Positions 953 to 27,423 of a DNA stretch of 64,000 bases are shown here, piece after piece. The stretch's first letter is position 1. Each line of letters begins with the position of its first letter. The stretch comes from Candidatus Omnitrophota bacterium (GTDB lineage: Bacteria > Omnitrophota > Gorgyraeia > Gorgyraeales > Gorgyraeaceae): the NCBI GenBank assembly GCA_030649895.1, contig JAUSEX010000052.1:16988-80987 (forward strand), given 5' to 3'. A model generated the notes under the pieces. That model searched no databases. It saw only the letters and a program-made list of their open reading frames with translations, and had not been told where the DNA came from. The translations under genes and the position numbers were made by a program.

Positions 953-2262
953 TATTTAGACAGGATAGTATTATACAACTTCTCAGTATCTTTTATCAAT
1001 CTTTCTTTTGAGAATCGGTTTTTCACGATATTCCTGCCATTTTCGCCAAATTGTCTTCTTTTTTCAGGTTCTCTTATTAAATCCATGAGTTTTCGACCAA
1101 ACTCTTCCACATCCTCTGACTCTACCAGATATCCACTCTTTCCATCCTGCACCATATCCACTACACCGCCTACTTTAGTAGCAACCACAGGCCTTGCGCC
1201 AGCCATAGCTTCAATAAGCGATACCGGCGTCCCCTCATTCAGTGATGTCAAAACCACTATGTCTAACCCCTCATAAATCGCCTTTAAGTCCTTCTCCCAT
1301 CCTCTAAACTCTACTATATCTTTTATGCCCAATTCCCCTGCATATTTTTCTAATTCTTCCCTTAATTCCCCATCGCCTATAATTATAAATTTAACTTCTC
1401 GACTCTGCGCACATGATATGCTTTCATGCCCGCTCGAAGAATATTTGCTACCAATATCGTTCGAGCGGACATGTTGTTTCAGATTGCAAGCACAGTCGAG
1501 AACCATCTTATGATTTTTTATGGGCACAAGCCTGCCAACTATGCCTATATTTACAATGTCAGCATTTTCCTTCGGCGCTAATTTAAATAACTCCTCTAAT
1601 TCAAATCCTAACTCTATCACAGAAATTTTATTCTCTGGCGCTATTCTATATTTTTCTACAAGTTCTTTTTTTAAATTTTCGCTTACTGTAATAATCTTAT
1701 CCGTAAACAGCGCCAGAAATCTCTCCACCCATATAAAAAATAACGTTTTAATTTTCCCGAAATATCCGCTAAACGCATGGCCATGAAATGTATGGACAAT
1801 AACAATACTGTTCGAGCGAGGCCGAATATCTTCTCGACAAGCTCGAAGAATATTCGGCCAAGTAGAGAACCTTATAACTTCACACAACACTCCCGCCATC
1901 CTACCCAACGCTCCAGCCTTCGCCGTATGTGTGTGAATAATATCCGGTTTTTCCTCGCGAATAATCTTATATATTTTACAAAATGCCGTCCAATCATCTT
2001 TCCATGACAATTCTCTGCCAAGTTCTTTTACAATAACCGGCTTAATGCCCTTCTCGGCCGCCAGGTAAATCATGTCGCCTTCGCTCTCAGCCACCTCGCC
2101 ACACACAAGCACAGTTTCATATTTTATCTTCTCGACTTCGCTCGAAGAATATTGTTCGAGCGAGGCCGAAGGCCGAATCGAGAACCCTTCTGTCAACAAT
2201 ACTGCATTCCTCGCCGGCCCGCCAATATTAAGTCTCGCAATAATCCTGACTATTTTAATCAT
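952..2262 (-). CDS. Glycosyltransferase family 4 (GT-B fold) carrying three in-frame insertions of the palindromic element.
   Basis: GT4 hallmarks are present (N-terminal MIKIVRIIARLNIGGPARN; C-terminal GLDIVVLTSLNEGTPVSLIEAMAGARPVVATKVGG EX7E-like region). Three segments encoded by the repeat copies (FSIRPSASLEQYSSSEVEKIKYETVLVCGEVAESEGD; LCEVIRFSTWPNILRACREDIRPRSNSIVIV; DCACNLKQHVRSNDIGSKYSSSGHESISCAQSREVKF) interrupt otherwise conserved GT4 sequence without breaking the frame. Confidence 0.8.
   Translation of the reverse strand: MIKIVRIIARLNIGGPARNAVLLTEGFSIRPSASLEQYSSSEVEKIKYETVLVCGEVAESEGDMIYLAAEKGIKPVIVKELGRELSWKDDWTAFCKIYKIIREEKPDIIHTHTAKAGALGRMAGVLCEVIRFSTWPNILRACREDIRPRSNSIVIVHTFHGHAFSGYFGKIKTLFFIWVERFLALFTDKIITVSENLKKELVEKYRIAPENKISVIELGFELEELFKLAPKENADIVNIGIVGRLVPIKNHKMVLDCACNLKQHVRSNDIGSKYSSSGHESISCAQSREVKFIIIGDGELREELEKYAGELGIKDIVEFRGWEKDLKAIYEGLDIVVLTSLNEGTPVSLIEAMAGARPVVATKVGGVVDMVQDGKSGYLVESEDVEEFGRKLMDLIREPEKRRQFGENGRNIVKNRFSKERLIKDTEKLYNTILSK
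1395..1503. repeat. Nested palindromic element, copy C, inside the GT4 coding sequence and in frame.
   Basis: CTTCTCGAC(1395-1403) ... CCCGCTCGAAGAATATT ... GTTCGAGCG(1459-1467) ... GTCGAGAAC(1495-1503). Confidence 0.8.
1804..1870. repeat. Nested palindromic element, copy D (permuted compact form), inside the GT4 coding sequence and in frame.
   Basis: GTTCGAGCG(1810-1818) aggccgaatat CTTCTCGAC(1830-1838) aa GCTCGAAGAATATTCGGCC(1841-1859) aa GTAGAGAAC. The stem ggccgaatat/atattcggcc is complementary. Confidence 0.75.
2128..2187. repeat. Nested palindromic element, copy E (60-bp compact form), inside the GT4 coding sequence and in frame.
   Basis: CTTCTCGAC ttc GCTCGAAGAATATT GTTCGAGCG aggccgaaggccgaa TCGAGAACC. 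It encodes KYSSSEVEK, the same peptide as the copy in asnB at 18488-18557. Confidence 0.8.
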
Positions 2263-2594
2263 CCGATTATCTTTCTTATATTCTCTTCTACTTTATTTAA
2301 GTCGACTTTCGAAATTTCTCCTATTTTCCTGAAAATCATATTTGACTTTATTGTTCTTATAATTCCAGTAACCAATGAAGGGTAGAGCAACCCTGCTTCT
2401 TTCCATTGAGAAATCTTTGTATCGCCTAAGAGTATCCTATCTACATTACTGGTAATAGCTAAGATAACCACTTCTTGCCTTTCTGTATGATATGCTTCAC
2501 TGCTTATAACCAATGCCGGCCTTTTCTTGAATCCTATCCCTTCAGAAAAACCAAAATTCACCAGCGCGATGTCCCCATGTTTACATTTTATCAT
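2259..2594 (-). CDS. mazF: Type II toxin, MazF/PemK family endoribonuclease.
   Basis: MIKCKHGDIALVNFGFSEGIGFKKRPALVISSEAYHTERQEVVILAITSNV is a canonical PemK/MazF pattern (GDI..V.F...G.E...RPALV.S......VV..ITS). The start overlaps the upstream antitoxin stop (ATGA-type coupling). Confidence 0.8.
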   Translation of the reverse strand: MIKCKHGDIALVNFGFSEGIGFKKRPALVISSEAYHTERQEVVILAITSNVDRILLGDTKISQWKEAGLLYPSLVTGIIRTIKSNMIFRKIGEISKVDLNKVEENIRKIIG

Positions 2595-2832
2595 ACTCAG
2601 CGTCCTTTTTGTTTTCCCACACACTATGCAATATAGGATCCTTATCCGGATATGCGCTTATATTGGATAATTCTTTTCTTTCAGTTTCTTCGTGCAGTTT
2701 TTTTTGCACACATTCTAATACATATTCTCTCATTGTTTTGCCATATAGCGCTGCATAAGCCTTGATTTGCCTATGTTCTTCTGGTAGCACATCAATACTC
2801 AATCTTTCTCTCCCTAAATTTTTCTTTGCCAT
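2581..2832 (-). CDS. Ribbon-helix-helix (CopG/Arc-like) antitoxin, cognate partner of the MazF toxin.
   Basis: MAKKNLGRERLSIDVLPEEHRQIKAYAALYGKTMREYVLECV (RHH beta-strand plus two helices). AGGAGG Shine-Dalgarno 7 nt upstream of the ATG. The 3' end overlaps the mazF start. Confidence 0.7.
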   Translation of the reverse strand: MAKKNLGRERLSIDVLPEEHRQIKAYAALYGKTMREYVLECVQKKLHEETERKELSNISAYPDKDPILHSVWENKKDAEYDKM

Positions 2833-2905
2833 ATAAAACACCTCCTACCAAAACTATACCACATTTACACAAATGTGTCAATACACATGTATATTATTAT
2901 GGGAA

Positions 2906-3160
2906 CTAGGCTTCTATAGCGCACCCAGATAAAGCAATGTGCATTTTTTGCACATTGCTTTTTTCTCCTAACTCTTTTGAGTTAAATATGTTACTAATAT
3001 GTCGCGTTATTACACTTCTATCTATTTGAAATAGTTTCGCTATTTTAGCTTGAGTAAGCCAAACCGTATCCTGCTCAAGCTTAATTTCTAATAAAACTTT
3101 ATTGTGCTTATCACTATAGATAACTATTTCTCCCTTAAAAAACTTATCTTGATCTACCAT
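2906..3160 (-). pseudogene. RhuM-family (Fic/DOC-associated virulence protein) N-terminal fragment, 84 aa, truncated.
   Basis: EIKLEQDTVWLTQAKIAKLFQIDRSVITRHISNIFNSKELGEKSNVQKMHIA matches the conserved N-terminus of RhuM proteins (TVWLTQ..MAELFQ....NISLHIKNIF..EL.E.SV.K). Full-length family members are about 330 aa. Confidence 0.55.
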
Positions 3161-3182
3161 ATTTGACTCCTCCTTTGTATAA

Positions 3183-3220
3183 TAGACACATCTGGAGGCT
3201 GTTTTCTTTCAAATATTTTC
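3183..3220 (-). promoter_or_regulatory. Conserved ~40-nt upstream motif, copy b, followed (minus strand) by TATTATAC, an AGGAGG RBS and the ATG of the RhuM fragment.
   Basis: Plus strand TAGACACATCTGGAGGCTGTTTTCTTTCAAATATTTTC. Confidence 0.6.
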
Positions 3221-3239
3221 ATGGCTTTATTATAACTAT

Positions 3240-4040
3240 TTATTTTCTTATTGTCCAGAAGTCTGCTGAAAGGGTTTCGAGGTATTCATACGGCATGATA
3301 AAGTAGCCATCTTTGCCCCATTTAGTTCCCCAGGAATTTCGCACAAGAAATCTCTTTTCTCGCTGGTCATATCCCACTGCCAGAACAGCGTGTCCGCCAA
3401 GGACTTTTTCCTTCTTCCTGGGCATATTAGCCACGCCTGTACGTGCCACTCTCTGCGACTGGAAACTCTCATAAACAGTAAAGCCAAATACAAATGGATA
3501 TCCTTCAGCAAGGCAGGTAAGCATTTCAGGCAGGCTATTTATGCGGTGATAAGATTCTATACAGCGTTTCTTTGCTTCAGCATAGCATTTTTTAGGAGGT
3601 TTTCTGGTAAATCTTTCTATTACATACGGCCACGTCTTTTCCCAGCACGCGCCTTGTTTTCTCAATGTCTTAATGCCGTCTCTTAAAGATGCTCCTGAGT
3701 CATAATCAACTGTATTTTCCAAAACTCTCTCATTATAATAAATAAAAAGCCTGCTTACATCCGTATATCCCAACAACCTTCCCGTTCGGCGATCGGGATT
3801 ATCTTTATCCCGATCGCCGAACGGGAAGGTTATGCCTTTTCTATCCAAATATTCCAAATTTCCAGCCAATGCATTCGCAGTGCAACTCCCAAGCGCCTCC
3901 TGATTTTCCACGATAGAACAAAATTCCCTCAAATCCACCTTTTTCGGCAATCTCACTACAGGCCTTATCGCCTTATATAAATAATCCCTCTGATCCGGCC
4001 TATCTGGCACCCAGCCATAACTTCTTTTCCCCTTAACCAT
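3240..4040 (-). CDS. Papain-like cysteine peptidase, C1 family.
   Basis: Catalytic Cys context QEALGSCTANALAGNLEY; His context GGHAVLAVGYD; Asn/Trp context NSWGTKWGKDGYF. The gene contains a perfect 18-bp-stem hairpin at 3781-3825 that encodes, in frame, PFGDRDKDNPDRRTG. Confidence 0.8.
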   Translation of the reverse strand: MVKGKRSYGWVPDRPDQRDYLYKAIRPVVRLPKKVDLREFCSIVENQEALGSCTANALAGNLEYLDRKGITFPFGDRDKDNPDRRTGRLLGYTDVSRLFIYYNERVLENTVDYDSGASLRDGIKTLRKQGACWEKTWPYVIERFTRKPPKKCYAEAKKRCIESYHRINSLPEMLTCLAEGYPFVFGFTVYESFQSQRVARTGVANMPRKKEKVLGGHAVLAVGYDQREKRFLVRNSWGTKWGKDGYFIMPYEYLETLSADFWTIRK

Positions 4041-4052
4041 CCCTCCCCTCCT

Positions 4053-4568
4053 CTAAACCTGGTCTACTGTGATTTTCTTAATGCCTAAAACATTGCAGAA
4101 ACGCATGACGGTATATAGCGTGACATTTTTCCTGCCTTCTTCTATCCTGGAAACATCCGGCTGTTTCATACCTATGCGATGCGCCAATTGCTTCTGGCTC
4201 AACCCTTTCCGAATCCTCGCTTCTTTAATAAGCGCCCCAAACTTCCGGAAAAAAACCGGCGTGGCGCTTGCAGGTTTTCTGCGGCCTCGTCCATTCACAT
4301 CTACAAGCTGTTCATAGATTGTTTCCCACCAATCCCTAAAATCTGATTGTCGCGCGCGTTTTATCCATTGAGCCCTGATCCTTGGCCATGCGTCTATAAA
4401 CGTATCCTTGGCAATCAAGGAAAATAGCTCCTTTGACTTATCACAGCGCGACAGAAAAATTACCATTTTAACCGGAAATTGCGGATGTTCTGGATTTTTA
4501 AGTATCTTGGCTGTTTCTTTCAGGGCATTTTCACTTATGTCCCAAAAATATTTTGAAATAATCATCAT
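4053..4568 (-). CDS. Hypothetical protein with a C-terminal XRE-family helix-turn-helix. Overlaps the upstream AbiEii-like gene by 4 nt.
   Basis: C-terminal LSQKQLAHRIGMKQPDVSRIEEGRKNVTLYTVMRFCNVLGI is a classic XRE HTH. The N-terminal ~100 aa are of unknown fold. Confidence 0.6.
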   Translation of the reverse strand: MMIISKYFWDISENALKETAKILKNPEHPQFPVKMVIFLSRCDKSKELFSLIAKDTFIDAWPRIRAQWIKRARQSDFRDWWETIYEQLVDVNGRGRRKPASATPVFFRKFGALIKEARIRKGLSQKQLAHRIGMKQPDVSRIEEGRKNVTLYTVMRFCNVLGIKKITVDQV

Positions 4569-5275
4569 CCTATTGCCTCCATGGCTAATTGCTTGACCTC
4601 GTTTTCCAGGTAAATAACCAATTCCTTAGCATTGAATTCAGTATCGTAAATATCCAGCTCCATTAGCGCAAGCTTGAGTTCCTGCCTGGAAAATGTTCGA
4701 TACCAGTGGACTATCCCCTTTTGGAACCGGGGCGAAAGGCTGCGCAGGAATATGTGCAATGGCTGTATTTTTTTTGAAAGTATGTACACGTCAAATACAT
4801 CTCGCGCCTCTTTGCGGCCTTCGCTGACTTGCCTGCCGACCTCATCTGTTATAACTTGAGTGCCGGAAATAGCGGCTATTTTATGCAGGTATAAATCCTC
4901 TGCACTATACACGCGGACACCGTCAATTTTCCGTATTGCCGGGTGAATGCATACAACATCTTCAACAAAATCAATCTTTAATGGCCTATCCGAACCCTTG
5001 ACCGATATAGTATAAAACCGAACGGCCGCCTTATTGCCGGAAACAAATTCTGATTCCAGATGAATTTTCTGATCCAGATGTTTTTCAAAGGCCTCTGTTA
5101 AGGCAGCTATTTCCGGAATAAGGTATTTCCTTGAAAAAAAATCCAGATCCGAGGAAAACCTATGATGCAGATAATACAATTCAAGAGCTGTGCCACCGGC
5201 AAGCGCAAAATCCCCTGTCTCACGCGAAAAGGCCTTCAGAACAAGTTTTTGCGCCTCTCTTAATTTTAAGTTCAT
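4565..5275 (-). CDS. Nucleotidyltransferase, AbiEii/AbiGii (DUF1814) toxin family, number 1. No upstream AbiEi partner.
   Basis: GDFALAGGTALELYYLHHRFSSDLDFF matches the AbiEii motif (GGTAL...Y...R.S.DLDF). Confidence 0.7.
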   Translation of the reverse strand: MNLKLREAQKLVLKAFSRETGDFALAGGTALELYYLHHRFSSDLDFFSRKYLIPEIAALTEAFEKHLDQKIHLESEFVSGNKAAVRFYTISVKGSDRPLKIDFVEDVVCIHPAIRKIDGVRVYSAEDLYLHKIAAISGTQVITDEVGRQVSEGRKEARDVFDVYILSKKIQPLHIFLRSLSPRFQKGIVHWYRTFSRQELKLALMELDIYDTEFNAKELVIYLENEVKQLAMEAIG

Positions 5276-5340
5276 ATAAATAACCTCTATGCTTATATAT
5301 AGATTATAATCTATCTCTATATAGAGTATAACCTATATTT

Positions 5341-5500
5341 TTATTTTGTCAATAGGCGCTAACGAAATATGCCTGCCCCGTACCCTTGTGGTACGGGGTC
5401 TATTGGGCATGCCTTAAAATCCCAACCGCATATCCAATATTTCTTAAAGGATTATCCGGACGCATGGAGGAGACTTTTTTTGACTGCTTTGGCTACGTTT
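5341..5500. repeat. Repeat and gene-remnant block. It contains a CAATAGGCGCT...GCCT/ATTG hairpin interrupted by a 23-bp mini-hairpin (5376-5398), plus a 3' remnant (last ~30 codons) of the winged-helix 'family A' gene (complement 5400-5490).
   Basis: Reverse-complement translation gives PKQSKKVSSMRPDNPLRNIGYAVGILRHAQ*, matching the C-termini of the genes at 7556-7987, 11687-12061 and 15722-16153. The flanking hairpin sequence recurs at 10748-10790 and 25990-26035. Confidence 0.6.
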
Positions 5501-5626
5501 ACCAGCCATATTCCCAATACGCGAGGGGTATATTGAGATATCCATGGCCTTCTACGCTATTGATACGGGCCTCAAAAGAGCCGCCATAGTTAAATTTTAC
5601 ATCTACCAGGCCATAACCTTTTAATT

Positions 5627-6544
5627 TTACCGATAAAGAATTTTTTCAAGCTTCTCAACCGCTGCCTTCCGGAGAAACGCGCTCATTTGATTTAAGTTAT
5701 ACAACTTCCACTGAACCGCCGGAAGCTTACTTGCGTCATCTAAACCTAAAAGCCCCCAATCAGGATTGCCTTGTTTAAATGATATAAGAAATTTTTTATC
5801 ATCGTTAGTGAGATTTTCAAGCACCGTCCGAAATAATTTCTCGCGGGTTTCTATTAAGTCACTCAATTGCACCGGAATAGTGGGCATTTTCTCAAATTGC
5901 GTTTTAAAGACTTCTGTTAAATCCTTCCTATTCGGCATTAAAAGCTCTGAAATAGGCCGATTGCCACATATTAAATATACCAAAAAAGATTTTTTCAATG
6001 TCTTGGTAATGCCTTCATTCGCAAACAAAACCATAACATCAAAAAAATCTCGGGGATGCTGACGATCTAATGCCGCACATAATTTCCCGGCATACAGTTC
6101 ATCAAAAGACACAACTGGAACTTTTACATATCCAAAAAAATTTTCAACAATACGAGATATCTGCATTTTCGTTGGCGAATACAGCAAGCCCCGCGATACG
6201 GGAGATGCTTCTATTTTAATACTCTCCGAATCATGCCAGACAACTAATTTAGCTATATTCTCGTCATTATTTTTTTGTGCGCTCACAGAAGAACCAACAA
6301 TCGAATGTTTTATTTGAGCTGCCATCGATTGAAAGGCTTGCGTTATCTCGAATAGAGAAACAACCCGTTCCTTGATCGGGGTATACACAAGATCAATATC
6401 AACCGATAATCGCGGCATGTCCCGCACAAAAAGATTGATGGCTGTCCCACCTTTAAGCGCGAAACAATCACAAGCCGCGACATGAGGCAATACTCGCACC
6501 AATAATTGCACCCGTTTAAAATACGGGTTTATTGTATCAAACAT
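5627..6544 (-). CDS. Nucleotidyltransferase, AbiEii toxin family (type IV TA), number 2.
   Basis: CFALKGGTAINLFVRDMPRLSVDIDLVY motif. The start overlaps the upstream AbiEi gene by 8 nt. Confidence 0.8.
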   Translation of the reverse strand: MFDTINPYFKRVQLLVRVLPHVAACDCFALKGGTAINLFVRDMPRLSVDIDLVYTPIKERVVSLFEITQAFQSMAAQIKHSIVGSSVSAQKNNDENIAKLVVWHDSESIKIEASPVSRGLLYSPTKMQISRIVENFFGYVKVPVVSFDELYAGKLCAALDRQHPRDFFDVMVLFANEGITKTLKKSFLVYLICGNRPISELLMPNRKDLTEVFKTQFEKMPTIPVQLSDLIETREKLFRTVLENLTNDDKKFLISFKQGNPDWGLLGLDDASKLPAVQWKLYNLNQMSAFLRKAAVEKLEKILYR

Positions 6545-7313: not shown

Positions 7314-7432
7314 ACTTTACAGTATATCATATTTCTAAACTAAAAACAAGCTTATGGTTTAAATTTTATTATTCTTGTATATTGTGGGTTTACTTTTTAA
7401 TATTATTCTAAACATCGTCTCTGTATCTGCCA

Positions 7433-7557
7433 TATCTGTAATATACATCTTACCATCCGTAGCCAGCATTTTTAAACCGTTACATTTTGTAACGGTTTCA
7501 CTACCCTTTCGCTACTATATAAGACACATCTCAAAGGTGTTTTCTTTCAAAAATTTT
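7433..7557. repeat. Composite repeat unit, copy 1: 25-bp perfect palindrome AAACCGTTACATTTTGTAACGGTTT (7474-7498) followed by the conserved 40-nt motif (7518-7557).
   Basis: Near-identical to the unit at 15623-15748. The palindrome also occurs at 11284-11308 with compensatory changes (GTGAC...GTCAC). Confidence 0.8.
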
Positions 7558-8160: not shown

Positions 8161-8163
8161 TGA

Positions 8164-9676: not shown

Positions 9677-9706
9677 TTATACACCCCCTTTACGTATCTA
9701 TCTAGA

Positions 9707-20221: not shown

Positions 20222-20276
20222 TCTCTTAAAGGCTTCGTGGATGGTGGATTTATTTACAACTCAACATAAGATTGCG

Positions 20277-21608: not shown

Positions 21609-21707
21609 GGCAAACTCTTTCTATGTATGGCTAATATACAAGCATATAGTATAACAATATTGGCTATAATACAAGGTATATTATGTGGAACCGATAGCTT
21701 CCTTTTA

Positions 21708-21750
21708 TATATAGACACATCTTAAGGGTGGTTTCTTTCAATTTTTTTTA
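21708..21750 (-). promoter_or_regulatory. Conserved 40-nt motif, copy g, about 100 nt upstream of AAA#4.
   Basis: TATATAGACACATCTTAAGGGTGGTTTCTTTCAATTTTTTTTA. Confidence 0.55.
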
Positions 21751-22794
21751 AGTCATTAAAAGCTTCGTGGAGCTGCTTACTCCATTAATTTGTTCTTCGA
21801 TAACCCGTAGCTTTTCTATGACGCGATCAAATGATGGCGGCTCTTCAAAAAACATTTGTTGCATCTGGCGGTAATCGTTTTTCAGTTGGCTCACTTGATT
21901 ATCACAAGGCACCAAATGCAAGGTACCCGGCTTTGCTTCATCGTAATGCGCCCAATTCGCTTTAAAAAATAGAGATTTATGATCAGACACATCTTTTAGT
22001 AACGAAATACTCTCTAGGGCTCTTTTATATATCGGCGAATCCGCCATCGCGTATATATCGTAATAATGACGCGACATTCGCAATGGCACATTCTTTTCAG
22101 ACGGATAATGATATATCATATGCAAAATAGTCGCTTTCTCCCAAAAAGTCCGTTCCGCGGCTAAAACCCGTACAGAAGCTCCTTCAATGACCTGTTCACC
22201 GGGAACGTTCGCGATGTATGGGAAAATTATTGCGGTTTCAACCGGCCAATGATCAGAGCGAGCGCCAAATTCAACTTTGACCGAAGACCTTAAGTAGCTT
22301 TCCGCATGACTCATCATCGCATGGGGAAAAGTAAATAGAACAGTTTGTCCGTCCGCATCTTCTGTATCCAATTCGATTTTCCATTCACCGCTATCGGAAA
22401 GAACCGTCGCGACCCCTCTCTTTAAATCAGGAAGAATCATTTCATCAATTTTTGTTTTACAAACTAATTGCAATTCTTTAAGCCTTTTCTGATTTTCCTT
22501 ATTGCTTTTTTCTTTATCCGGTTCGATAGCATGAGTCTTAGATAAAAAAGGCCTTTCTATTGAAATGTCAACGTCTTCCGAAAAACGTTTAATAACGTTA
22601 TAACATTTTGAGAGGGATGTCCCCCCTTTAAAGGTTACATGCGTGCCGATCTGGGGTAACGAAAAAAGGATTTTTAGTATCCAGCATACCCAAAAGTCCT
22701 TTTCAACCAGCTGCGGCATTATGTTCAAGTTAGCAGCGGCCACTTCAAAATACGCGCGTTTATCTTTATGCGTCAACAATACGAATTTATTCAT
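21748..22794 (-). CDS. Nucleotidyltransferase, AbiEii toxin family, number 4.
   Basis: HVTFKGGTSLSKCYNVIKRFSEDVDISIERPF motif. Confidence 0.8.
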   Translation of the reverse strand: MNKFVLLTHKDKRAYFEVAAANLNIMPQLVEKDFWVCWILKILFSLPQIGTHVTFKGGTSLSKCYNVIKRFSEDVDISIERPFLSKTHAIEPDKEKSNKENQKRLKELQLVCKTKIDEMILPDLKRGVATVLSDSGEWKIELDTEDADGQTVLFTFPHAMMSHAESYLRSSVKVEFGARSDHWPVETAIIFPYIANVPGEQVIEGASVRVLAAERTFWEKATILHMIYHYPSEKNVPLRMSRHYYDIYAMADSPIYKRALESISLLKDVSDHKSLFFKANWAHYDEAKPGTLHLVPCDNQVSQLKNDYRQMQQMFFEEPPSFDRVIEKLRVIEEQINGVSSSTKLLMT

Positions 22795-22801
22795 AGTCCT
22801 T

Positions 22802-23400
22802 TTATTCCTGCAGTTGTCTAAAGATTGATCCTATCCACGCGGGGGCATAGCGAAGATCGCGCATAAGCCGGCACTTGTCAATCCCGGTTAATCTCTTTTT
22901 GAGTATCCCTATTGTTTTATCATCTACGTGATCTTTTCCTAAATACCTCAAAGCCTGAATAACCAAACCACTAACATCCCCGGTAGCTGCCATATTCTTA
23001 GGTGTTGTTCTTTTTAAAACAATCCGTTGATTTTTTACCTGCACTGTTTTATTGCCGCCATCTGTCAGAAAAATAATTCTCGCCGGTACCTGATCGGTTA
23101 AGCCCAGGAGATTGGCGGCATATGCCCCCGAAGGTTGAATTTTCAAGCTATCCCTTCCTGCTAATGCTTGAGCGATGCGCTCATAATTCGCAGGTAACTC
23201 TCCCAACACAGGGTGTTTCTCCGGGTAATCATACAGGCCACGCGCGAGTCGGCGAATAGTTCCGGAATCTGCTAAACGCTCTAGGGTTTTAGCTACGGCC
23301 GTGCGGCTTCCAAGATCAAGAAAATGAGTCGTGGTGAATACCCAACCCCTCTTCATCCCATATATCCTGCTAACTACTTTACTATCAATGCTTTGTGTCA
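22802..23400 (-). CDS. AbiEi-family antitoxin / regulator, number 4. The start is assigned to the ATG at 23398-23400; the longer ORF reaching 23449 would translate the promoter palindrome itself.
   Basis: MTQSIDSKVVSRIYGMKRGWVFTTTHFL...GTIRRLARGLYDYP (AbiEi_4 signature). GGAGAGG RBS 9 nt upstream of the ATG at 23400. Confidence 0.7.
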
Positions 23401-23416
23401 TAATAATAACCTCTCC

Positions 23417-23457
23417 TATGTCGCAAAAAGTATATACTTTTTGCGACATATTGTCAA
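23417..23457 (-). promoter_or_regulatory. Promoter of AbiEi#4: TTGACA(23452-23457)-N17-TATACT(23429-23434). Spacer and -10 lie within a perfect 34-bp palindrome TATGTCGCAAAAAGTATATACTTTTTGCGACATA (23417-23450), a candidate autoregulatory operator.
   Basis: Minus strand: cTTGACAatatgtcgcaaaaagtaTATACTttttgcgacataGGAGAGGttattattATG. AbiEi antitoxins are known autorepressors that bind inverted repeats. Confidence 0.7.
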
Positions 23458-23486
23458 GATGTTTTTACGTAAATCCACCCTTAAAA

Positions 23487-23518
23487 GCAGTAGCCCAGGT
23501 TTAAACCTGGGCTACTGC
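23487..23518 (-). terminator. Rho-independent terminator hairpin immediately 3' of DinD#3 (GCAGTAGCCCAGG-tttaaa-CCTGGGCTACTGC followed by TTTTAAG on the minus strand).
   Basis: 13-bp perfect stem, 6-nt loop, U-tract. A variant with covarying stem is at 24410-24441. Confidence 0.65.
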
Positions 23519-24351
23519 TAATTCAAGAGTTTCTTGCTTTGAGCTTCTTTTAGATAATTTTCACGCGTTAATACTTTTTTACCACTCTTTCTTTCCAATT
23601 CTTTTCTCGCGTTGCCCGCGACAGCGCCGCCCTTTTGGGCTGCTTGCTTAGTCTCGATAAATCCCTGAGCATTTTTATTTATGGTGATTTCTTTAGTGGA
23701 TGCCTCTCCAAGCATTGAGAAGATCAGCTCCAAGTCATTCATATGATCCCGCAGATTTTGCCGCTTTAACCCTTTAAACTTTTTATACGCGGATGGGGTC
23801 AGGCCAAAAGTTGCTTTTGATATCTCAGCGGTGAGTATTTCGTATTCTTTGGGTTTCTTTACGTCTCTTTTTTGCCACTCGTCAGTTAGTTCTTCACGGA
23901 TAGCTATGCCGCGTAGTCTCTTTTCTATCCAGGCATCGCTATATCCTTTAGCCTTATATAAAGCTCTCGTTCTCTTTGTAGCTAGTTCAGGGTCTTCGAT
24001 TTCCTTAATCCGCTCATAGCCGATTCTTGCCAGCCACCTCTTAAATGGTTCAGCTTTAGGTGATGAGACTGACTGGATAATGCGAAAAATACCTTCTGTA
24101 TTTGCACAGTTCATCTTCTGTCTCCCACCTTCTGTGCGAATTTCAAGGGTATGTACAATTTGTACCCACCCTTTAGCCAACTCTGGATCCCTTTGTTTCA
24201 TTCTCTGGATATACTGCTTAGGATCACTGGAATCAATCAAAGCCGAGACAACGTCTTCAATAACAAACCACCACTCCTTCTTATGAATGGCTTTCCTGAT
24301 CTCTTTCTTCCGAAAAATAGCAATTTTAGTAACAACTGTCTCTTTTGTCAT
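23518..24351 (-). CDS. DinD-like / Bro-N domain protein, copy 3.
   Basis: About 85% identical to copy 1 over the N- and C-terminal parts, with a divergent middle segment (SSDPKQYIQRMKQRDPELAKGWVQIVHTLEIRTEGGRQKMN). Confidence 0.7.
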   Translation of the reverse strand: MTKETVVTKIAIFRKKEIRKAIHKKEWWFVIEDVVSALIDSSDPKQYIQRMKQRDPELAKGWVQIVHTLEIRTEGGRQKMNCANTEGIFRIIQSVSSPKAEPFKRWLARIGYERIKEIEDPELATKRTRALYKAKGYSDAWIEKRLRGIAIREELTDEWQKRDVKKPKEYEILTAEISKATFGLTPSAYKKFKGLKRQNLRDHMNDLELIFSMLGEASTKEITINKNAQGFIETKQAAQKGGAVAGNARKELERKSGKKVLTRENYLKEAQSKKLLN

Positions 24352-24409
24352 TTATCCCTCCAGATTTTTAATTACCATATATAAATCTACCCGCTTTTAA
24401 CTTATAAAA

Positions 24410-24441
24410 GCAGTAGGGTAGGTTTAAACCTGCCCTACTGC
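24410..24441 (-). terminator. Rho-independent terminator hairpin 3' of the YhcG-like gene (GCAGTAGGGTAGG-tttaaa-CCTGCCCTACTGC followed by TTTTATAAG on the minus strand).
   Basis: Same structure as 23487-23518, with compensatory CCC/GGG to GGT/GCC changes (one G·U wobble). Confidence 0.6.
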
Positions 24442-24444
24442 TAC

Positions 24445-25173
24445 TTAAAATTTATACCGTTGCATTTCTTTCCGAAGCTCCTCTGGGGTAGGAAGATACA
24501 GTTTGTACCGCGAGGCGAATATCTGCTTATTGCGCTCAGGCAATGTATATCGTACTACAGCGTCTTTTTTATCCTCGCATAATAAAAGCCCTACGGTAGG
24601 ATTATCATCATGGCGCCTCAATATCCGATCATAGTAATTAACGTACATCTGCATCTGCCCTATATCCTGATGAGTAATTTTTCCTATTTTTAAATCAATA
24701 AGAACGTAACACTTCAGAATCGCATTATAGAAAACCAGATCTATGTAAAAATGATCTCCCTCTAGCGTTATGCGGTTTTGGCGCGCGACAAACGTAAATC
24801 CTCTGCCAAGTTCCAGGAGAAATTGAGACAGATGGTCAATAAGCGCCTGCTCAAGTTTATTTTCATAAAGTTTAGCCTGAGGAGATAGTCCGGTAAATTC
24901 TAGCACATATGGATCCTTTATCATATCTTCATATGTCTGAACATCCTGGCCTTTGGCGGCAAGCCGTTTCACAGCTTTCTTATCTTTGCTTAACGCAAGT
25001 CTCTCGAACAACATGCTGCCTTTCTGGCGTTCAAGCTCGCGGGATGACCAATTATTCTTCGCGCATTCTACTTCATAAAATGAACGGGCTTCCGGATTTT
25101 CTACCCGTATTAATATCCTATAGTGCGTCCAGCTTAATTCGTGACGCAGCGCGTCACGATTCGAATACATCAC
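24445..25173 (-). CDS. PDDEXK-family nuclease, YhcG/DUF1016-like, N-terminally short relative to canonical family members.
   Basis: LSWTHYRILIRVENPEARSFYEVECAKNNWSSRELERQ matches the YhcG signature (LSWSHY..L....D...R.FY......W..REL.RQ). The C-terminal region GDHFYIDLVFYNAILKCYVLIDLKIGK is consistent with a PD-(D/E)xK core. The first ~18 codons lie inside repeat 25119-25261. Confidence 0.65.
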   Translation of the reverse strand: MMYSNRDALRHELSWTHYRILIRVENPEARSFYEVECAKNNWSSRELERQKGSMLFERLALSKDKKAVKRLAAKGQDVQTYEDMIKDPYVLEFTGLSPQAKLYENKLEQALIDHLSQFLLELGRGFTFVARQNRITLEGDHFYIDLVFYNAILKCYVLIDLKIGKITHQDIGQMQMYVNYYDRILRRHDDNPTVGLLLCEDKKDAVVRYTLPERNKQIFASRYKLYLPTPEELRKEMQRYKF

Positions 25174-25261
25174 ATAGAAATATCTTATATTTTGGAACCA
25201 TAAAGCTCGTAACTTATTATATGGTAAAATGTTACAGTGCAGTAAGACGTCCCCGATGCTA
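25119..25261. repeat. 143-bp repeat, copy 2, forming the 5' end and leader of the YhcG-like gene.
   Basis: Paralogous to 20079-20221. Minus strand contains TTACTG-N18-TATAAT, a promoter-like sequence, upstream of ATGATGTAT. Confidence 0.75.
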
Positions 25262-25280
25262 ATTGGCTGAAAAATTGCAG

Positions 25281-25682
25281 TTATTGCTTTTCTAAAGAGA
25301 ATTTCTTTTGCGGATAATTAACTGTAAGAACAAAATTACTTAAAAAACTTCTTACCCCTAATAGCGGGACATTAAGATTTGGCATGAAATCTATAAGGGT
25401 TTCTTTAATAGTAATATCGAATATCTCGATTCTAACTGTATGAGAATACGCTATAGTTTTCCCATTGCCAGTATTTATTTCCTTAGCTATACCTGCTTGG
25501 AGATTATGTCCTAATATTGCGGCATAAGATGCCGGTAAAGCGCATTCATCCGCTCCTGTGTCAATTAATCCTAATATTTTCATCTTCTTATTGGAATGCG
25601 GGTTAACTATAGTAATAGGCAGCCACGGTCTTGAAATATCTTCAGAGCTTAGCTTTATGAAAGGAATATTAGAAAATTCCAT
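25281..25682 (-). CDS. Retropepsin-like (clan AA) aspartic protease.
   Basis: ILGLIDTGADECALP (DTG active-site motif, single-lobe size of 133 aa). The start abuts the stop of the upstream small gene. Confidence 0.7.
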   Translation of the reverse strand: MEFSNIPFIKLSSEDISRPWLPITIVNPHSNKKMKILGLIDTGADECALPASYAAILGHNLQAGIAKEINTGNGKTIAYSHTVRIEIFDITIKETLIDFMPNLNVPLLGVRSFLSNFVLTVNYPQKKFSLEKQ

Positions 25683-25871
25683 TTAGTATATCTGAACCAT
25701 ATCTTTGGCAGGGATAAAAAATATCACAGGATTAGGGTACCCTTGCTTTACTGCTTTATCATATGCTTCCTTAGGATCCTTACCATCAGCAATAACAGTG
25801 CTATCGTCAAAATCCTTTACTACTACGTAACGACCATTATATTTATTTTCTTTTACAAGGACTTGTTCCAT
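25683..25871 (-). CDS. Small protein (62 aa), DUF5678-like, forming a two-gene unit with the retropepsin-like protease.
   Basis: MEQVLVKENKYNGRYVVVKDFDDSTVIADGKDPKEAYDKAVKQGYPNPVIFFIP resembles the pattern of small proteins (.G.WVA.....V.A.G....E....A...G...P.IF.VP) often encoded next to retropepsin-like proteases. The stop is directly adjacent to the protease ATG. Confidence 0.55.
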   Translation of the reverse strand: MEQVLVKENKYNGRYVVVKDFDDSTVIADGKDPKEAYDKAVKQGYPNPVIFFIPAKDMVQIY

Positions 25872-26059
25872 ACCACACCTCTCTTTTCCTGCAGTCTATT
25901 AGCAATAATGCTAACTATATCTCTTTTAAATTCAGGCAGTTACATAAATATTTCCAATTATCTCCATGTCTTAGGTAATTATACATCAGATCTCAAGTAA
26001 AGTCAATAGCGCTCTGTCAGAATGTGTCTATCAGGCATGTTGCTTCTTTCCTCTAATAC

Positions 26060-27190
26060 CTAATAACTCTTTTTTAAATCATTAAAAGCTTCCTGGATGG
26101 TGGATTCATTTACATTAAACCTCTTAGCTAAATCAGCCTTTGTTATAGAAGAAATATCCTCCCCTTTGCTTTTGAAGAGGGCCTCTATCATAAGAATAAA
26201 TTTCAGGCGCAAGGTTAAATCAGGTGATTGCCTATTCATAATAGAATCGGAGGATATAACAAAAGAATCACCCGGGATATCCGTAAGCTTTATGAAGACG
26301 TCTTTACCATGCAAAAAGTCTACGCTTATAAGATCATAACGATCCTGGAGCCTCTTCAGGCTTCTTATTACCTGTCTCCTTAAGGCGCTATAACTCAATG
26401 CGCTCGGCAGACCCAAACTCAACGCCATGTCTTCCATATTTATGAAAAACTCAACCTCGCCCGTTAATTGGCTATAACCTAAAATTAAGAGATACAGATT
26501 AAAGACGCGTTCATCCTGGCCTGTAACCATGCGGGAAAAGTATTTCTTATTTACCAGGAGCTCTTCAGGGATAGCTATTCCCTCAGGCAGGTTTTCCAAA
26601 TAATCAGGAATGCCGGATATTTCCGTATTTGACTTTACAAACTTCAACACATCTTCAAGACGACTGAGTTTTTCACCGGCATGGCGAGGCGAATCAATCA
26701 GGGTATTGGATTCGAAATTCCTCTTGAGAGCGGAATTAGACCAGTTTGTACTGCCTATTATCACATATCTACTATCAACTATTATGAGTTTATCATGAAG
26801 CTTACGGCTTGACGGTATAAGGTAAATATCACACCCTGAATCTTTCAGCTCCTTAAACACAGGGCTCCCAATAAAAGATCCTTCGGATTTATCAATGTCC
26901 CTAAAACGGGTATTAAGATACATCGTAACGCTGACTCCCCTTTTCCTGGCCTCCAACAAGTCCTTTAATAGTAGCATTACCGGACTTTTTTCTCCAAAAC
27001 CAGGACTAATACCATACATGGAAACAACTATCGATTCTTTCGCGTTATCCAAGAGATCTATAAGAACTTGTTCATATTTACGGTCTGACAGGTCAGTGAC
27101 TTTCTCTGAGGAGTCATTATCCGCAGGATACACGGAAAAAACATTCAAAAAAACTATAGCAAAAACTATAAAAATTATCGAAAGTCTGAT
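26060..27190 (-). CDS. PLD-superfamily (HKD) nuclease fused to a C-terminal tandem winged-helix / HTH DNA-binding region. The start codon is uncertain: TTG at 27148, or non-canonical further upstream giving a hydrophobic N-terminus.
   Basis: HKD motif KLHDKLIIVDSRYVIIGSTNWSNSALKRNFESNTLI. The C-terminus ...ITKADLAKRFNVNESTIQEAFNDL is an HTH. The frame is open from the TAG at 27204-27206, encoding GRINIRLSIIFIVFAIVFLNVFSVYPADND... (possible signal/TM peptide), but there is no ATG in that stretch. Confidence 0.65.
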   Translation of the reverse strand: MRLSIIFIVFAIVFLNVFSVYPADNDSSEKVTDLSDRKYEQVLIDLLDNAKESIVVSMYGISPGFGEKSPVMLLLKDLLEARKRGVSVTMYLNTRFRDIDKSEGSFIGSPVFKELKDSGCDIYLIPSSRKLHDKLIIVDSRYVIIGSTNWSNSALKRNFESNTLIDSPRHAGEKLSRLEDVLKFVKSNTEISGIPDYLENLPEGIAIPEELLVNKKYFSRMVTGQDERVFNLYLLILGYSQLTGEVEFFINMEDMALSLGLPSALSYSALRRQVIRSLKRLQDRYDLISVDFLHGKDVFIKLTDIPGDSFVISSDSIMNRQSPDLTLRLKFILMIEALFKSKGEDISSITKADLAKRFNVNESTIQEAFNDLKKSY

Positions 27191-27191
27191 A

Positions 27192-27359
27192 TTAATCCTC
27201 CCCTATCTCAATCTTTATGGTAGAAATCCCGCTCGCAGGAAATTTCTTCGTCACCTGATTATTCACAGTATACTCCCATGTATCATAATCAAATGAAACC
27301 TTATAACACCTTTCCACCTCGACATCATTAAACTTTACTATCCATCCGCCCTTTGACAT
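27192..27359 (-). CDS. Small ORF (55 aa) with a strong RBS, immediately upstream of the PLD-HTH gene with no intergenic gap.
   Basis: AAGGAGG 7 nt before the ATG (complement 27357-27359). MSKGGWIVKFNDVEVERCYKVSFDYDTWEYTVNNQVTKKFPASGISTIKIEIGED. The stop TAA (27192-27194) lies inside GGGGAGGATTAAT, the putative RBS/start region of the downstream gene. Confidence 0.5.
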   Translation of the reverse strand: MSKGGWIVKFNDVEVERCYKVSFDYDTWEYTVNNQVTKKFPASGISTIKIEIGED

Positions 27360-27423
27360 GAAAGGCCTCCTTTTTTACGCTATGCGATATGCTTGTGTAT
27401 GCGTCCCGCACATCCAGTACATA

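Follow-up and report, generated by a model that had tools for sequence, protein, structure and literature searches.

Two adjacent accessory zones rich in toxin–antitoxin and candidate defence genes within a surface-glycan locus from an uncultured Omnitrophota bacterium

Core genes and zone boundaries

The window, which is the whole 64-kb stretch of DNA that was analysed, carries every long open reading frame (ORF) on the minus strand, as the sequence-only reading had stated, and all features described below lie on that strand. The glycan genes named in that reading as flanks were verified, namely the N-terminal part of an NAD-dependent epimerase (1–344), a GT4 glycosyltransferase (952–2262; Pfam Glycos_transf_1, 3e-34) and a class I methyltransferase (27424–28392; Methyltransf_23, 1e-25). 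Beyond the methyltransferase lie about 34 more ORFs, of which the 29 scanned against Pfam have glycan-type domains, except for two with no match; no TA or defence-type gene was found among these 29 in the next 36.6 kb. The epimerase was recognized by alignment, being 73–93% identical in nucleotides to the epimerase that follows GT4, or the small ORF downstream of GT4, in the relatives L001, L002, L003, L005 and L061 (sequences compared here carry labels beginning with L); the epimerase following GT4 in relatives shares 27–28% amino acid identity with the window epimerase at 37061–38047. A 110-aa coiled-coil ORF downstream of GT4 (487–819) has a counterpart of 54–92% amino acid identity at the same position in L001, L002, L003 and L063. 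GT4 orthologues in Omnitrophota metagenome-assembled genomes are 42–67% identical; in the protein alignment, GT4 contains three in-frame palindromic insertions, and such insertions occur in coding genes. The methyltransferase has counterparts of 59–71% amino acid identity next to AsnB in L005, L008 and L009.

The interval 2259–27423 had been described as a single inserted island of about 25 kb, accessory throughout. However, it contains an AsnB-type glutamine amidotransferase gene (16724–18667; Pfam Asn_synthase, 1.5e-101) that had been overlooked. The AsnB-type amidotransferase is a typical glycan-cluster gene. The protein scores 507 bits against NCBIfam asn_synth_AEB, over the cut-off, and 616 bits against the XrtA/PEP-CTERM EPS amidotransferase model, under its cut-off of 817 bits; it is 83% identical in amino acids in L001, and its gene adjoins GT4 or the methyltransferase in L004, L005, L009 and L011. 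Because AsnB is conserved next to GT4 and the methyltransferase in relatives, the interval is not uniformly accessory, and the accessory DNA forms two adjacent zones on either side of AsnB: zone 1 (18668–27403; 8.7 kb) between the methyltransferase and AsnB, and zone 2 (2263–16723; 14.5 kb) between AsnB and GT4. Each zone holds nested remnants, which point to many events, and a single insertion is not supported.

Spacers of 1–8 nt separate the methyltransferase, AsnB and GT4 genes in Omnitrophota relatives. For instance, L009 and L055 have the order methyltransferase–AsnB–GT4 with no cargo between the genes, L005 has AsnB–methyltransferase–GT4 with the genes abutting, and AsnB immediately precedes GT4 in L004 and L011. 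Relatives thus have the contiguous glycan locus that the earlier reading had proposed looking for, but the empty sites correspond to two gaps rather than one. Zone 1 has a copy of a 10-bp direct repeat, ATGTGCGGGA, at either edge; this sequence forms the first ten bases of AsnB and occurs just twice in the window when both strands are searched: at the true AsnB start (18658–18667; inner boundary) and as an orphan copy at the outer boundary (27404–27413), 10 nt past the methyltransferase stop, the position of the real AsnB start in L008, L009 and L055. Zone 2 extends from the C-terminal 'FID' codons of AsnB to the GT4 start codon, where homology with relatives stops; all sequences with cargo after AsnB (the window, L001, L061 and L062) break at or shortly past the 'FID' codons, while AsnB of L009 ends in ..FIDKENIL* and that of L004 likewise runs beyond FID.

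Cargo, repeats and remnants

The earlier view that a co-oriented glycan cluster harbours a hypervariable accessory region with many TA and candidate defence genes is supported: the flanking glycan genes are contiguous in relatives, and close relatives fill these gaps with other TA cargo. Starting from AsnB, zone 1 contains two AAA_14-DUF4143 genes (18751–19890 and 20277–21608; Pfam; PADLOC PDC-S01, 2.5e-54 and 1.3e-146) that flank a PLD/YhcG junction remnant (20069–20258), followed by AbiEii (21748–22794; Pfam; PADLOC AbiEii, 3.3e-102) and a DUF6088-type AbiEi (22802–23449; Pfam; PADLOC AbiEi, 3.7e-69). An intact DinD-like gene (copy 2, 23518–24351; Pfam Bro-N, 3e-13), 81% identical in amino acids to copy 1 in zone 2, is bracketed by two 34-nt hairpins (23486–23519 and 24409–24442). 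The adjacent YhcG-type PD-(D/E)XK nuclease gene (24445–25173; Pfam YhcG_C, 6e-61) is N-terminally truncated, its DUF1016_N match being restricted to profile positions 84–137 of 137 and its PADLOC PDC-S02 match (1.4e-111) to positions 98–337 of 351. The remainder comprises a retropepsin-like aspartic protease gene (25281–25682; Pfam gag-asp_proteas, 3e-7; NCBIfam clan AA matches under cut-off), an adjoining 62-aa ORF (25683–25871), the most complete PLD-family (HKD) gene, with a C-terminal HTH-like region (26060–27148; PLDc_2, 3e-20), weak DrmC-like matches and 81–90% identical protein fragments in L061 and L063, and, at the upper edge, a 55-aa ORF with no family match (27192–27359).

Zone 2 contains two further AAA_14-DUF4143 ATPase genes (12825–13985 and 14083–15351; Pfam; PADLOC PDC-S01, 2e-47 and 2.5e-116), DinD-like copy 1, also intact (9867–10703; Bro-N, 1.6e-12; PADLOC PDC-S13, 2e-121), and the C-terminal half of a third DinD-like gene (10848–11294; 52–54% amino acid identity to both intact copies), which has a 96% identical homologous fragment in L002. 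Two canonical AbiE pairs are present: AbiEi 8903–9676 (Pfam; PADLOC AbiEi, 1.7e-34) with AbiEii 8164–8925 (Pfam; PADLOC AbiEii, 8e-38), which in L071 and L073 have homologous pairs next to homologues of the C1 peptidase, and AbiEi_3 6537–7313 (Pfam 6e-40; PADLOC AbiEi, 1.5e-83) with AbiEii 5627–6544 (Pfam 8e-39; PADLOC AbiEii, 8e-115). An AbiEii-like nucleotidyltransferase gene (4565–5275; Pfam; PADLOC AbiEii, 9.5e-17) is followed by an HTH_3 gene (4053–4568; Pfam) in a non-canonical pair that recurs in L002 at 96% and 92% amino acid identity. Towards GT4 lie a papain-family (C1) cysteine peptidase gene (3240–4040; Pfam Peptidase_C1, 1e-16; PDB 3ois, 1.2e-55), an N-terminal remnant (84 aa, 2906–3160) of a RhuM-Fic gene, which shares 75% identity with residues 1–83 of a 330-aa L063 ORF (1935–2927) that has RhuM and Fic domains, a ParD/RHH-like antitoxin gene (2581–2841; Pfam ParD, 8e-14) and a MazF/PemK toxin gene (2259–2624; PemK_toxin, 6e-13) whose stop overlaps the GT4 start (ATGA). 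The C1 peptidase is variably present: it is lacking in L005 and L009, occupies a position in L004 unlike that in L001 and occurs twice in L061, and among more than 578 metagenome relatives no neighbour is conserved.

Most of the earlier gene inventory has Pfam support (MazF with RHH, four AAA-DUF4143 genes, PLD, YhcG, the C1 peptidase and the retropepsin), although PLD and YhcG are partly fragments. In place of four AbiEi/AbiEii pairs and an orphan AbiEii, there are three canonical pairs and one AbiEii-HTH_3 pair, that is, four AbiEii genes and not five; similarly, two of three proposed DinD-like genes are intact, and the third is a half gene accompanied by small remnants. Among the three AbiE pairs, and likewise among the four AAA-DUF4143 genes, members fall under different subfamily models and mostly share less than 37% identity or no detectable similarity, which suggests independent acquisitions. 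PDC-S01, PDC-S02 and PDC-S13 are candidate families, and the defence role of the matched genes is putative.

The internal repeats, gene remnants and pseudogenes noted earlier are real, and the eroded genes in the zones belong to the PLD, DinD, YhcG and Fic families. Three repeat modules share 80–85% identity, an AsnB 3'-end remnant opens each, and the copies differ in indels and neighbours. Module A (7429–8157) holds the AsnB remnant at 8116–8155, a 143-aa ORF (7556–7987) and a DinD remnant (7435–7509); module B (11244–12805) holds the AsnB remnant at 12766–12805, a 124-aa ORF (11687–12061), a DinD remnant and a PLD gene with an in-frame stop (12253–12789); module C (15620–16745), which abuts AsnB, holds a 143-aa ORF (15722–16153), a DinD remnant and a PLD fragment without the HKD motif (16150–16566), so that one intact PLD gene and two PLD fragments are present. 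In addition, direct repeats of 48 nt with 90% identity (5400–5447 and 10785–10832) flank a 5.4-kb segment missing from L002, in which the alignment joins window positions 10760–10997 straight to 5447–3843. Each module also contains a copy of a conserved 45-nt intergenic element, termed the P element (7522–7550, 11601–11629 and 15713–15741), of which seven same-orientation copies lie at cassette boundaries, with zero expected by chance.

In these gaps, close relatives carry other TA cargo, with Doc, MNT, ParE, PIN and RhuM-Fic in place of MazF: HTH_17 with Doc and an MNT-type nucleotidyltransferase in L002; RHH with ParE, HTH_17 with Doc and a MazE-like gene in L061; and RHH with PIN and RhuM-Fic in L063. 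Relatives are 58–93% identical and belong to other species, which precludes dating how many events took place and in what order.

Probable stepwise gain of cassettes and competing explanations

The locus is probably a recombination hotspot with two adjacent accretion zones in a co-directional surface-glycan cluster, where TA, abortive-infection and candidate-defence cassettes were gained stepwise; no mobility gene was found in the window. The ancestor would have had methyltransferase–AsnB–GT4 with spacers nearly absent. Incoming DNA would have been received at two points, namely the opening ten bases of AsnB (zone 1) and the junction of the AsnB 3' end with the GT4 start (zone 2). The zones would then have gained cassettes singly, at least about 15 of them, each self-contained and unrelated to the others: three different AbiE type IV TA pairs, the AbiEii-HTH pair, ParD-MazF, four divergent AAA-DUF4143 genes, and DinD-like, PLD, YhcG, C1 peptidase, RhuM-Fic and retropepsin genes. 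The most likely route would be recombination, either homologous or microhomology-mediated, at the ends of genes and at short stretches of intergenic sequence common to the cassettes; because no recombinase or other insertion agent was identified, we infer this mechanism from the scars only. Cassettes would subsequently have been duplicated in place, interrupted and eroded; the repeat modules could reflect in-situ tandem duplication or repeated allele import from other strains, and the data fit either. Each cassette probably functions independently in TA, abortive infection or candidate defence, its retention may be due to TA addiction, and an anti-phage role is conceivable. ParD (TTGACA-17-TATAGT, 2881–2853), AbiEii 4565–5275 and the AAA genes 12825–13985 and 14083–15351 are each preceded by a sigma-70-like site with 11 of 12 positions matched, which suggests that each cassette is autonomous, although such sites overall are not above chance (60 found versus 55.6 expected). 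ParD-MazF, the last cassette, is translationally coupled to GT4. This kind of genomic hotspot is already known, and the Omnitrophota window is a clear example.

It is unlikely, although not implausible, that the cassettes are kept for a joint function with the glycan cluster; addiction might stabilize the variable glycan genes, abortive infection might be a back-up against phages that use glycan receptors, or ParD-MazF might control GT4 expression. MazF and GT4 share a stop–start overlap, and the promoter-like site of ParD is the closest strong site upstream of GT4. The hotspot also lies where a conserved block (GT4, the epimerase and an ORF of about 590 aa, present in every relative) meets a variable glycan block, and Omnitrophota hypervariable regions with surface-glycan and RM/TA cargo have been reported (10.64898/2026.06.07.730766). 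However, relatives function with empty gaps, and cargo turns over and erodes fast, as would be anticipated for selfish TA modules at permissive sites (PMC13617665).

An assembly artefact, in which repeated modules (80–95% similar) and mosaic order arise from chimeric joining of strain variants in the metagenome, is very unlikely. Logan contigs, which are separate short-read contigs from the same sample (SRR13727527), break at repeats (2936, 5472, 18511, 20116 and 27232); one, L144, is just 3,038 bp long, and none spans a repeat module, so the module order derives from the window assembly. However, four of these independent contigs reproduce unique window stretches at 99.99–100% identity: L141 over 2936–5472 (100%), L142 over 18511–20116 (100%), L143 (71.9 kb) over 27232–38392, ending within the 55-aa ORF, and L144 with both AAA genes of 12825–15351; the junctions of AAA with the AsnB start and of the methyltransferase with zone 1 are among those covered. 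The module copies differ by 15–20%, with different indels and neighbours, unlike collapsed or duplicated strain variants, and the same kinds of junction are seen independently in L002, L061 and L063.

Slightly less credible still is an integron-like site-specific cassette array, which would capture cassettes in one direction at a defined site, with its recombinase outside the window and the P element or another intergenic repeat as the recombination site. Sedentary chromosomal integrons are TA-rich, as is this locus, all of the roughly 27 accessory genes are co-oriented, and the P element copies share one orientation and recur at cargo boundaries in L061 and L063. However, no IntI-like gene was found among the ORFs scanned in the 64 kb; the P element has no attC-like imperfect palindrome, occurs at about 6 of roughly 15 cassette boundaries and also precedes the core ORF 487–819 here and its counterparts in L001, L002 and L003; and several cassettes are preceded by their own strong sigma-70-like sites. 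The whole window, glycan genes included, is coded on one strand with strong GC skew, and co-orientation is therefore a property of the whole genome region.

A single integrative mobile element of about 25 kb (a genomic island, ICE/IME or prophage remnant) inserted once into the cluster is largely refuted, despite relatives without the region, the 10-bp repeat around zone 1 and the frequency of Bro-N/DinD, PLD, YhcG, AAA-DUF4143 and TA families in mobile elements, since no integrase or transposase was found among the scanned ORFs of the window and no tRNA in the window, DinD-like and PLD proteins have no relatives in viral contigs, phage and plasmid collections give no DNA match, composition shows no step at 2.26 kb or 27.4 kb (GC 0.400 in accessory coding sequence versus 0.384 in core genes), the 10-bp repeat encloses the 8.7-kb zone 1 only, the conserved cluster gene AsnB lies mid-region, and the gaps of relatives are filled partially and differently.

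A glycan operon with two accessory zones

The interval at 2259–27423 had been taken, in the sequence-only reading, for a single toxin–antitoxin (TA)/nuclease island of about 25 kb within a surface-glycan locus. That observation is largely right, in that a hypervariable hotspot of TA and candidate defence genes does lie in a glycan cluster, but the single-island reading does not hold, and the interval is best read as two accretion zones built by many events. It consists mostly of cargo, but it also contains an overlooked gene for an AsnB-type glutamine amidotransferase (AsnB, 16724–18667, minus strand; Pfam Asn_synthase, 1.5e-101), which resembles the amidotransferases of EPS clusters (TIGR03108, 616 bits, under the model's cut-off); further along, the glycan cluster contains a paralogue 47% identical to it. 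The minus strand carries every long ORF of the 64-kb window, GC content stays level at about 0.39, and the skew is strongly negative over the whole length. Above 27.4 kb, the remaining 36.6 kb hold about 35 ORFs, of which 30 were scanned with Pfam; all of these are of glycan-biosynthesis type (GT2, GT4, DegT, epimerases, deacetylases, nucleotidyl- and cytidylyltransferases, methyltransferases, radical SAM enzymes, PMT_2) or have no match. The window has the contiguous glycosyltransferases and sugar-nucleotide-modifying enzymes that mark a surface-glycan cluster; the flippase-type membrane protein that such a cluster also carries may be a 511-aa membrane ORF (61978–63513), which has no Pfam match and is flippase-like by inspection only. 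The best relatives of the glycosyltransferase GT4 (952–2262) are 58–67% identical in amino acids and come from Candidatus Omnitrophota MAGs.

In related genomes, the methyltransferase gene (MT, 27424–28392 in the window), AsnB and GT4 follow one another in the order MT-AsnB-GT4 (L009 and L055) or AsnB-MT-GT4 (L005), with spacers of a few bases, and AsnB stands immediately before GT4 in L004 and L011; the gaps between frame genes in these empty sites are −4 to 8 nt. In the window, the three genes are set apart by 8.7 kb and 14.5 kb, so that two accessory zones flank AsnB, namely zone 1 (18668–27403) and zone 2 (2263–16723). The comparison set is a handful of MAGs, as against the hundreds of isolates in published hotspot studies.

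The zone boundaries lie at gene ends. The sequence ATGTGCGGGA at 27413–27404 (minus strand), 10 bases past the MT stop, is identical to the first ten bases of AsnB and occupies the site of the real AsnB start in L008, L009 and L055. The second copy is the true AsnB start (18667–18658), and no third copy occurs on either strand of the window; zone 1 thus lies between two directly repeated 10-bp copies of its target, and no terminal inverted repeats were seen by inspection inside this repeat. At the other end of AsnB, the protein of L009 terminates in ..FIDKENIL* and that of L004 reads past FID and overlaps the GT4 start, neither gene being followed by cargo; in all genomes with cargo after AsnB (the window, L001, L061 and L062), similarity stops at or just after the FID codons. 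At the lower edge of zone 2, likeness to relatives ends at the GT4 start codon, which overlaps the stop codon of the upstream gene (ATGA or GTGA) whichever gene that is: MazF in the window, the C1 peptidase in L001, a 144-aa ORF in L002 and AsnB in L004.

Four Logan contigs from run SRR13727527 match the window. Three of them (L141, L142 and L143) align at 99.99–100% identity to 2936–5472, 18511–20116 and 27232–38392, and the fourth encodes exact protein matches to both AAA genes of 12825–15351; the organism was therefore present in that sample, and the unique segments, including the AAA-to-AsnB junction and the MT-side edge, are independently supported. L143 (SRR13727527_12132), a 71.9-kb short-read contig over the glycan side, stops 192 bp into zone 1 (at 27232), and other contigs of the run break at 2936, 5472, 18511 and 20116. 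Such breaks fit repeats limited to the accessory zones, or heterogeneity there at the population level.

Cargo families and their turnover

Gene families were assigned with Pfam, PADLOC and NCBIfam, and most of the earlier calls were upheld. The MazF gene (PemK_toxin, 6e-13) and its RHH antitoxin are present, the PemK/MazF-fold toxin being preceded in one operon by a small DNA-binding antitoxin; the antitoxin gene, which lies upstream of MazF and overlaps it, is of the RHH/ParD rather than the MazE type, making this a hybrid pair. AbiE is a type IV toxin–antitoxin or abortive infection system (Dy et al. 2014). Where four AbiE pairs and an orphan AbiEii had been proposed, three canonical AbiEi/AbiEii pairs and a fourth AbiEii with an HTH_3 protein were found. 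The three pairs, identified from sequence alone, each belong to a different subfamily, match both families over their full length (Pfam, PADLOC), keep the canonical AbiEi-then-AbiEii order, the two genes overlapping by 8 nt and 23 nt in two pairs and standing 7 nt apart in the third, and carry the nucleotidyltransferase motif GG[ST][AS]...D[LIV]D in AbiEii. Unlike canonical AbiE, the fourth AbiEii has no AbiEi before it and is followed by the HTH_3 protein; the two are 96% and 92% identical in amino acids in L002. Two of the three proposed DinD-like genes are intact (Bro-N; PADLOC PDC-S13), and the third is only a C-terminal half; similarly, one PLD-family nuclease gene is intact while two others are fragments, and the YhcG nuclease (PDC-S02) is present but truncated. 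All four AAA_14-DUF4143 genes (PDC-S01) were confirmed, and they are at most 25% identical to one another where similarity is detectable at all. The assignments that bear on a putative protection against phage are AbiE and the PADLOC candidate defence families PDC-S01, PDC-S02 and PDC-S13. Exact-protein look-ups gave no match for GT4, AsnB, MazF (with two alternative starts), PLD or the AbiEii at 21748–22794.

The C1 peptidase (3240–4040) is, as had been called, of the papain family, with PDB 3ois as its closest solved structure (1.2e-55) and no signal peptide evident by eye. It was first read as a stable core gene because it lies between AsnB and GT4 in L001 and L062, a reading ruled out by its metagenome contexts and its variable presence and position. 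It is absent in L005 and L009, upstream of AsnB in L004 and duplicated in L061; more than 578 metagenome homologues (52–87% identical) are stand-alone genes in unrelated neighbourhoods with no conserved neighbour, sometimes adjoining AbiE pairs (L071, L073) or glycan genes. The family is thus very widespread and well conserved; in the window its member is likewise cargo, and it seems to behave as mobile cargo does.

A retropepsin-like gene is also present. At 25281–25871, a 62-aa ORF with no family assignment directly abuts this gene (133 aa, clan AA) with zero spacer, and the two look like a two-gene module. The module lies between the PLD and YhcG genes, which are directly joined in a surviving junction remnant at 20069–20258. 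This was considered as a clean pair of empty and filled sites for a retropepsin cassette and rejected, the short copy being a deletion and not an empty site.

The same gaps hold differing cargo in different genomes. Between the C1 peptidase and GT4, the window has ParD-MazF and a Fic remnant, L002 has an HTH_17+Doc pair and an MNT-type nucleotidyltransferase with a partner ORF, and L063 has RhuM-Fic; the gap is empty in L001 and L061, and by nucleotide alignment also in L062. Upstream of the C1 peptidase copies, L061 carries RHH+ParE, HTH_17+Doc and a MazE-like gene, and L063 carries RHH+PIN; downstream of AsnB, the PLD modules of the window stand against DinD fragments and ParE and Doc pairs in L061. 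Relatives thus have other gene orders and do not keep the TA and nuclease genes as a conserved core, so that neither outcome named in the sequence-only reading as refuting it was seen.

Repeats and remnants record stepwise growth. Modules A (7429–8157), B (11244–12805) and C (15620–16745) are mutually 80–85% identical, and each opens with what is left of the AsnB 3′ end together with the sequence after it, followed, unless deleted, by a PLD gene, an ORF of 124–143 aa, an intergenic element of about 45 nt (P) and a DinD remnant. The PLD copy of module B has an in-frame stop shortly after the HKD motif, and that of module C lacks the motif. The AsnB-end remnants are closer to the L061 allele (HRMFID) than to the AsnB of the window (HREFID), which fits a later replacement of AsnB or, alternatively, an import from other strains. 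A 5.4-kb segment (5448–10784), which contains two AbiE pairs along with module A and a DinD gene, is missing from L002 and is flanked in the window by 48-nt direct repeats. The 84-aa ORF at 2906–3160 is what remains of the N-terminus of a RhuM-Fic gene, which L063 has intact (330 aa) at the same place. The three module ORFs (7556–7987, 11687–12061 and 15722–16153) are 77–86% identical to each other, have no Pfam, PADLOC or significant PDB match, and look like what was once the C-terminal part of a longer, ancestral PLD-wHTH protein and has since become detached; in the longest copy (7556–7987), the N-terminus is similar to the HTH-like region at the C-terminus of the 362-aa PLD gene at 26060–27148. 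The ORFs' own C-termini end in the motif NPLRN.GY.VGILR, which may be similar to DnaD-like domains.

Mode of growth and likeness to known systems

The most economical reading is a permissive recombination hotspot, situated at the border between a conserved block (GT4, an epimerase and an ORF of about 590 aa, found in all relatives) and the variable glycan block. Cassettes would arrive one by one with promoter-like sites of their own; sigma-70-like sites (11 of 12 positions) lie upstream of ParD, the AbiEii at 4565–5275 and two AAA genes. Later arrivals would duplicate or split cassettes via recombination at short shared sequences, and decay would then follow. TA addiction may favour retention, the cargo may have an anti-phage function, and the ParD-MazF promoter may control GT4.

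The one-way orientation of at least about 15 independent cassettes is unlikely to have arisen by chance. A dedicated, unrecognised, directional mechanism that inserts cassettes at gene boundaries and serves both gaps would, if true, account for the strict co-orientation, the 10-bp AsnB-start repeat and the recurrent breakpoints at FID and at the GT4 start; speculatively, P might be its recombination or re-initiation site, or the four AAA-DUF4143 proteins might be self-inserting elements. Because the window is one-stranded and strongly skewed, however, selection against head-on or operon-disrupting orientations is sufficient and no directional insertion is required; we regard such a mechanism as very unlikely.

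Sedentary chromosomal integrons, such as the Vibrio superintegron, are long co-oriented arrays of small cassettes that are rich in TA genes and unknown functions and carry repeated intergenic elements. The window shares the co-oriented small cassettes, the TA richness and the repeated intergenic elements, but it differs in having no IntI or attC-type sites, promoter-like sites in some cassettes and operon genes interspersed. No integrase domain and no attC-like layout were found, the repeats being gene remnants, P elements or perfect hairpins, and an integron-like mechanism with its recombinase outside the window is very unlikely, the defining features lacking within the window.

A single inserted island is rejected on synteny, on the position of AsnB inside the interval and on the missing hallmarks, and is extremely unlikely. 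No integrase, transposase or other recombinase was detected by Pfam among the island ORFs of ≥60 aa and 29 glycan-side ORFs, no tRNA or tmRNA occurs in the 64 kb, and no att-type repeats surround the whole element, the only clean flanking repeat being the 10 bp that bound zone 1. At the island edges, where the sequence-only reading proposed looking for shifts in GC and codon usage, there is no compositional step (accessory GC 0.400 vs. 0.384, GC3 0.40 vs. 0.38), and tetranucleotide profiles are only slightly less correlated. A phage or plasmid origin is rejected, as the DinD-like and PLD proteins have no close relatives among viral contigs and megablast of 2259–27200 against plasmid and phage collections gave no match.

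The permissive hotspot resembles published cases. P. aeruginosa cDHS1 and cDHS2 (Johnson et al. 2023, PMC10250203) and E. coli hotspot #37 (Hochhauser et al. 2023, PMC10121019) have fixed core flanks and varying cargo of many unrelated systems and unknown genes, some occupied sites being without identifiable means of mobilisation. The window shares the fixed flanks, the variable unrelated cargo and the absence of identifiable mobility genes; in contrast to these hotspots, its flanks are neighbouring genes of one glycan operon with the gap defined at gene-boundary resolution, its cargo is all co-oriented with the operon, and most of that cargo consists of TA pairs and of single genes from PADLOC "candidate" families, not of multi-gene systems that have been validated. 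In Photorhabdus (Belot et al. 2026, PMC13617665), TA systems occupy discrete spots of high turnover, with independent acquisition, pseudogenisation and loss. The window similarly has intact pairs beside eroded genes; however, the Photorhabdus spots are often associated with transposases or integrases and rarely with defence systems, whereas here no recombinase was found and TA genes are mixed with candidate defence genes. The pattern matches both the hotspots without mobility genes (PMC10250203, PMC10121019) and the TA acquisition-and-erosion model (PMC13617665). It is already known from recent preprints (10.64898/2026.06.07.730766, 10.64898/2026.05.20.726742) that Omnitrophota have hypervariable regions with RM, TA and capsule/LPS glycosyltransferase cargo, including a hypervariable polysaccharide cassette; these works, on the same phylum, stress recombinases and IS elements, rate TA cargo as minor and give no account of TA genes accreting at defined junctions within the operon of a glycan cluster.

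The locus does not reveal a new kind of system. It gives base-pair resolution of the growth of a TA/defence hotspot with no visible mobility gene, inside an operon that relatives keep tightly packed, and displays a ten-base target duplication at a gene start, reused gene-end breakpoints, nested junction copies and rapid erosion. It also contributes a case from Omnitrophota, a phylum for which nearly all knowledge comes from metagenomes, and places strong candidates for functional tests side by side: three different AbiE pairs, the AbiEii-HTH pair and four divergent AAA-DUF4143 genes.

Intergenic elements, palindromes and hairpins

The P element consists of AAAATWTTTGAAAGAAAAC, 6–7 variable nt and AGATGTGTCTWATATA, and is intergenic and in a single orientation. 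Its core occurs on the minus strand at 814–842, 3184–3212, 7522–7550, 9756–9784, 11601–11629, 15713–15741 and 21713–21741, that is, seven times within 0.8–21.8 kb and never in 22–64 kb, the chance expectation being none; in relatives it occurs in L001 (11176–11204), L002 (5314–5342), L003 (2061–2089), L061 (4806–4834) and L063 (166–194 and 1885–1913). In four genomes, P lies upstream of the conserved 110-aa ORF that comes after GT4; it also lies upstream of several accessory genes, and the copies at 814, 3184 and 11601 are followed after about 10–25 nt by a Shine-Dalgarno sequence and a start codon. A canonical sigma-70 promoter is a misfit, the TTGAAA-TATATA spacing being 22–23 nt; a sigma-70 scan gave a TTGAAA-first site at no copy, and lower-scoring sites in another register overlap two copies. 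The variable block pairs with the downstream Shine-Dalgarno in three copies; a conserved RNA hairpin masking the ribosome-binding site was rejected, as only three of seven copies fold so, with z-scores of −2 to +1. An attC-like structure was not found, and no Rfam family matches P or any other part of the window. P may act as an operator or an unusual promoter, or it may be an operon element of the JUMPstart kind.

Palindromic repeats of 60–140 nt, predicted to fold with energies of −22 to −53 kcal/mol, form a second class. One family, with GCTCGAAGAATATT/AATATTGTTCGAGC, is found at about 350–490, 856–958, 1378–1506, 1795–1892, 2120–2180 and 18478–18562, and a different perfect palindrome with a 27-bp stem at 3753–3842. 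Some are intergenic, and others lie in frame within coding sequence (GT4 has three, the C1 peptidase one, and AsnB one close to its N-terminus); orthologues have no insert, or different ones, at the loop positions. Rickettsia palindromic elements insert in frame into genes, and the in-frame palindromes of the window resemble them; we know of no description of such insertions for Omnitrophota. Finally, two 34-nt hairpins with a 15-bp stem centred on TTTAAA (23486–23519 and 24409–24442) bracket the DinD-like gene at 23518–24351. Their stem differences are compensatory (GCCCAGG/CCTGGGC vs. GGGTAGG/CCTGCCC), and they may be terminator-like or REP-like elements travelling with the cassette.
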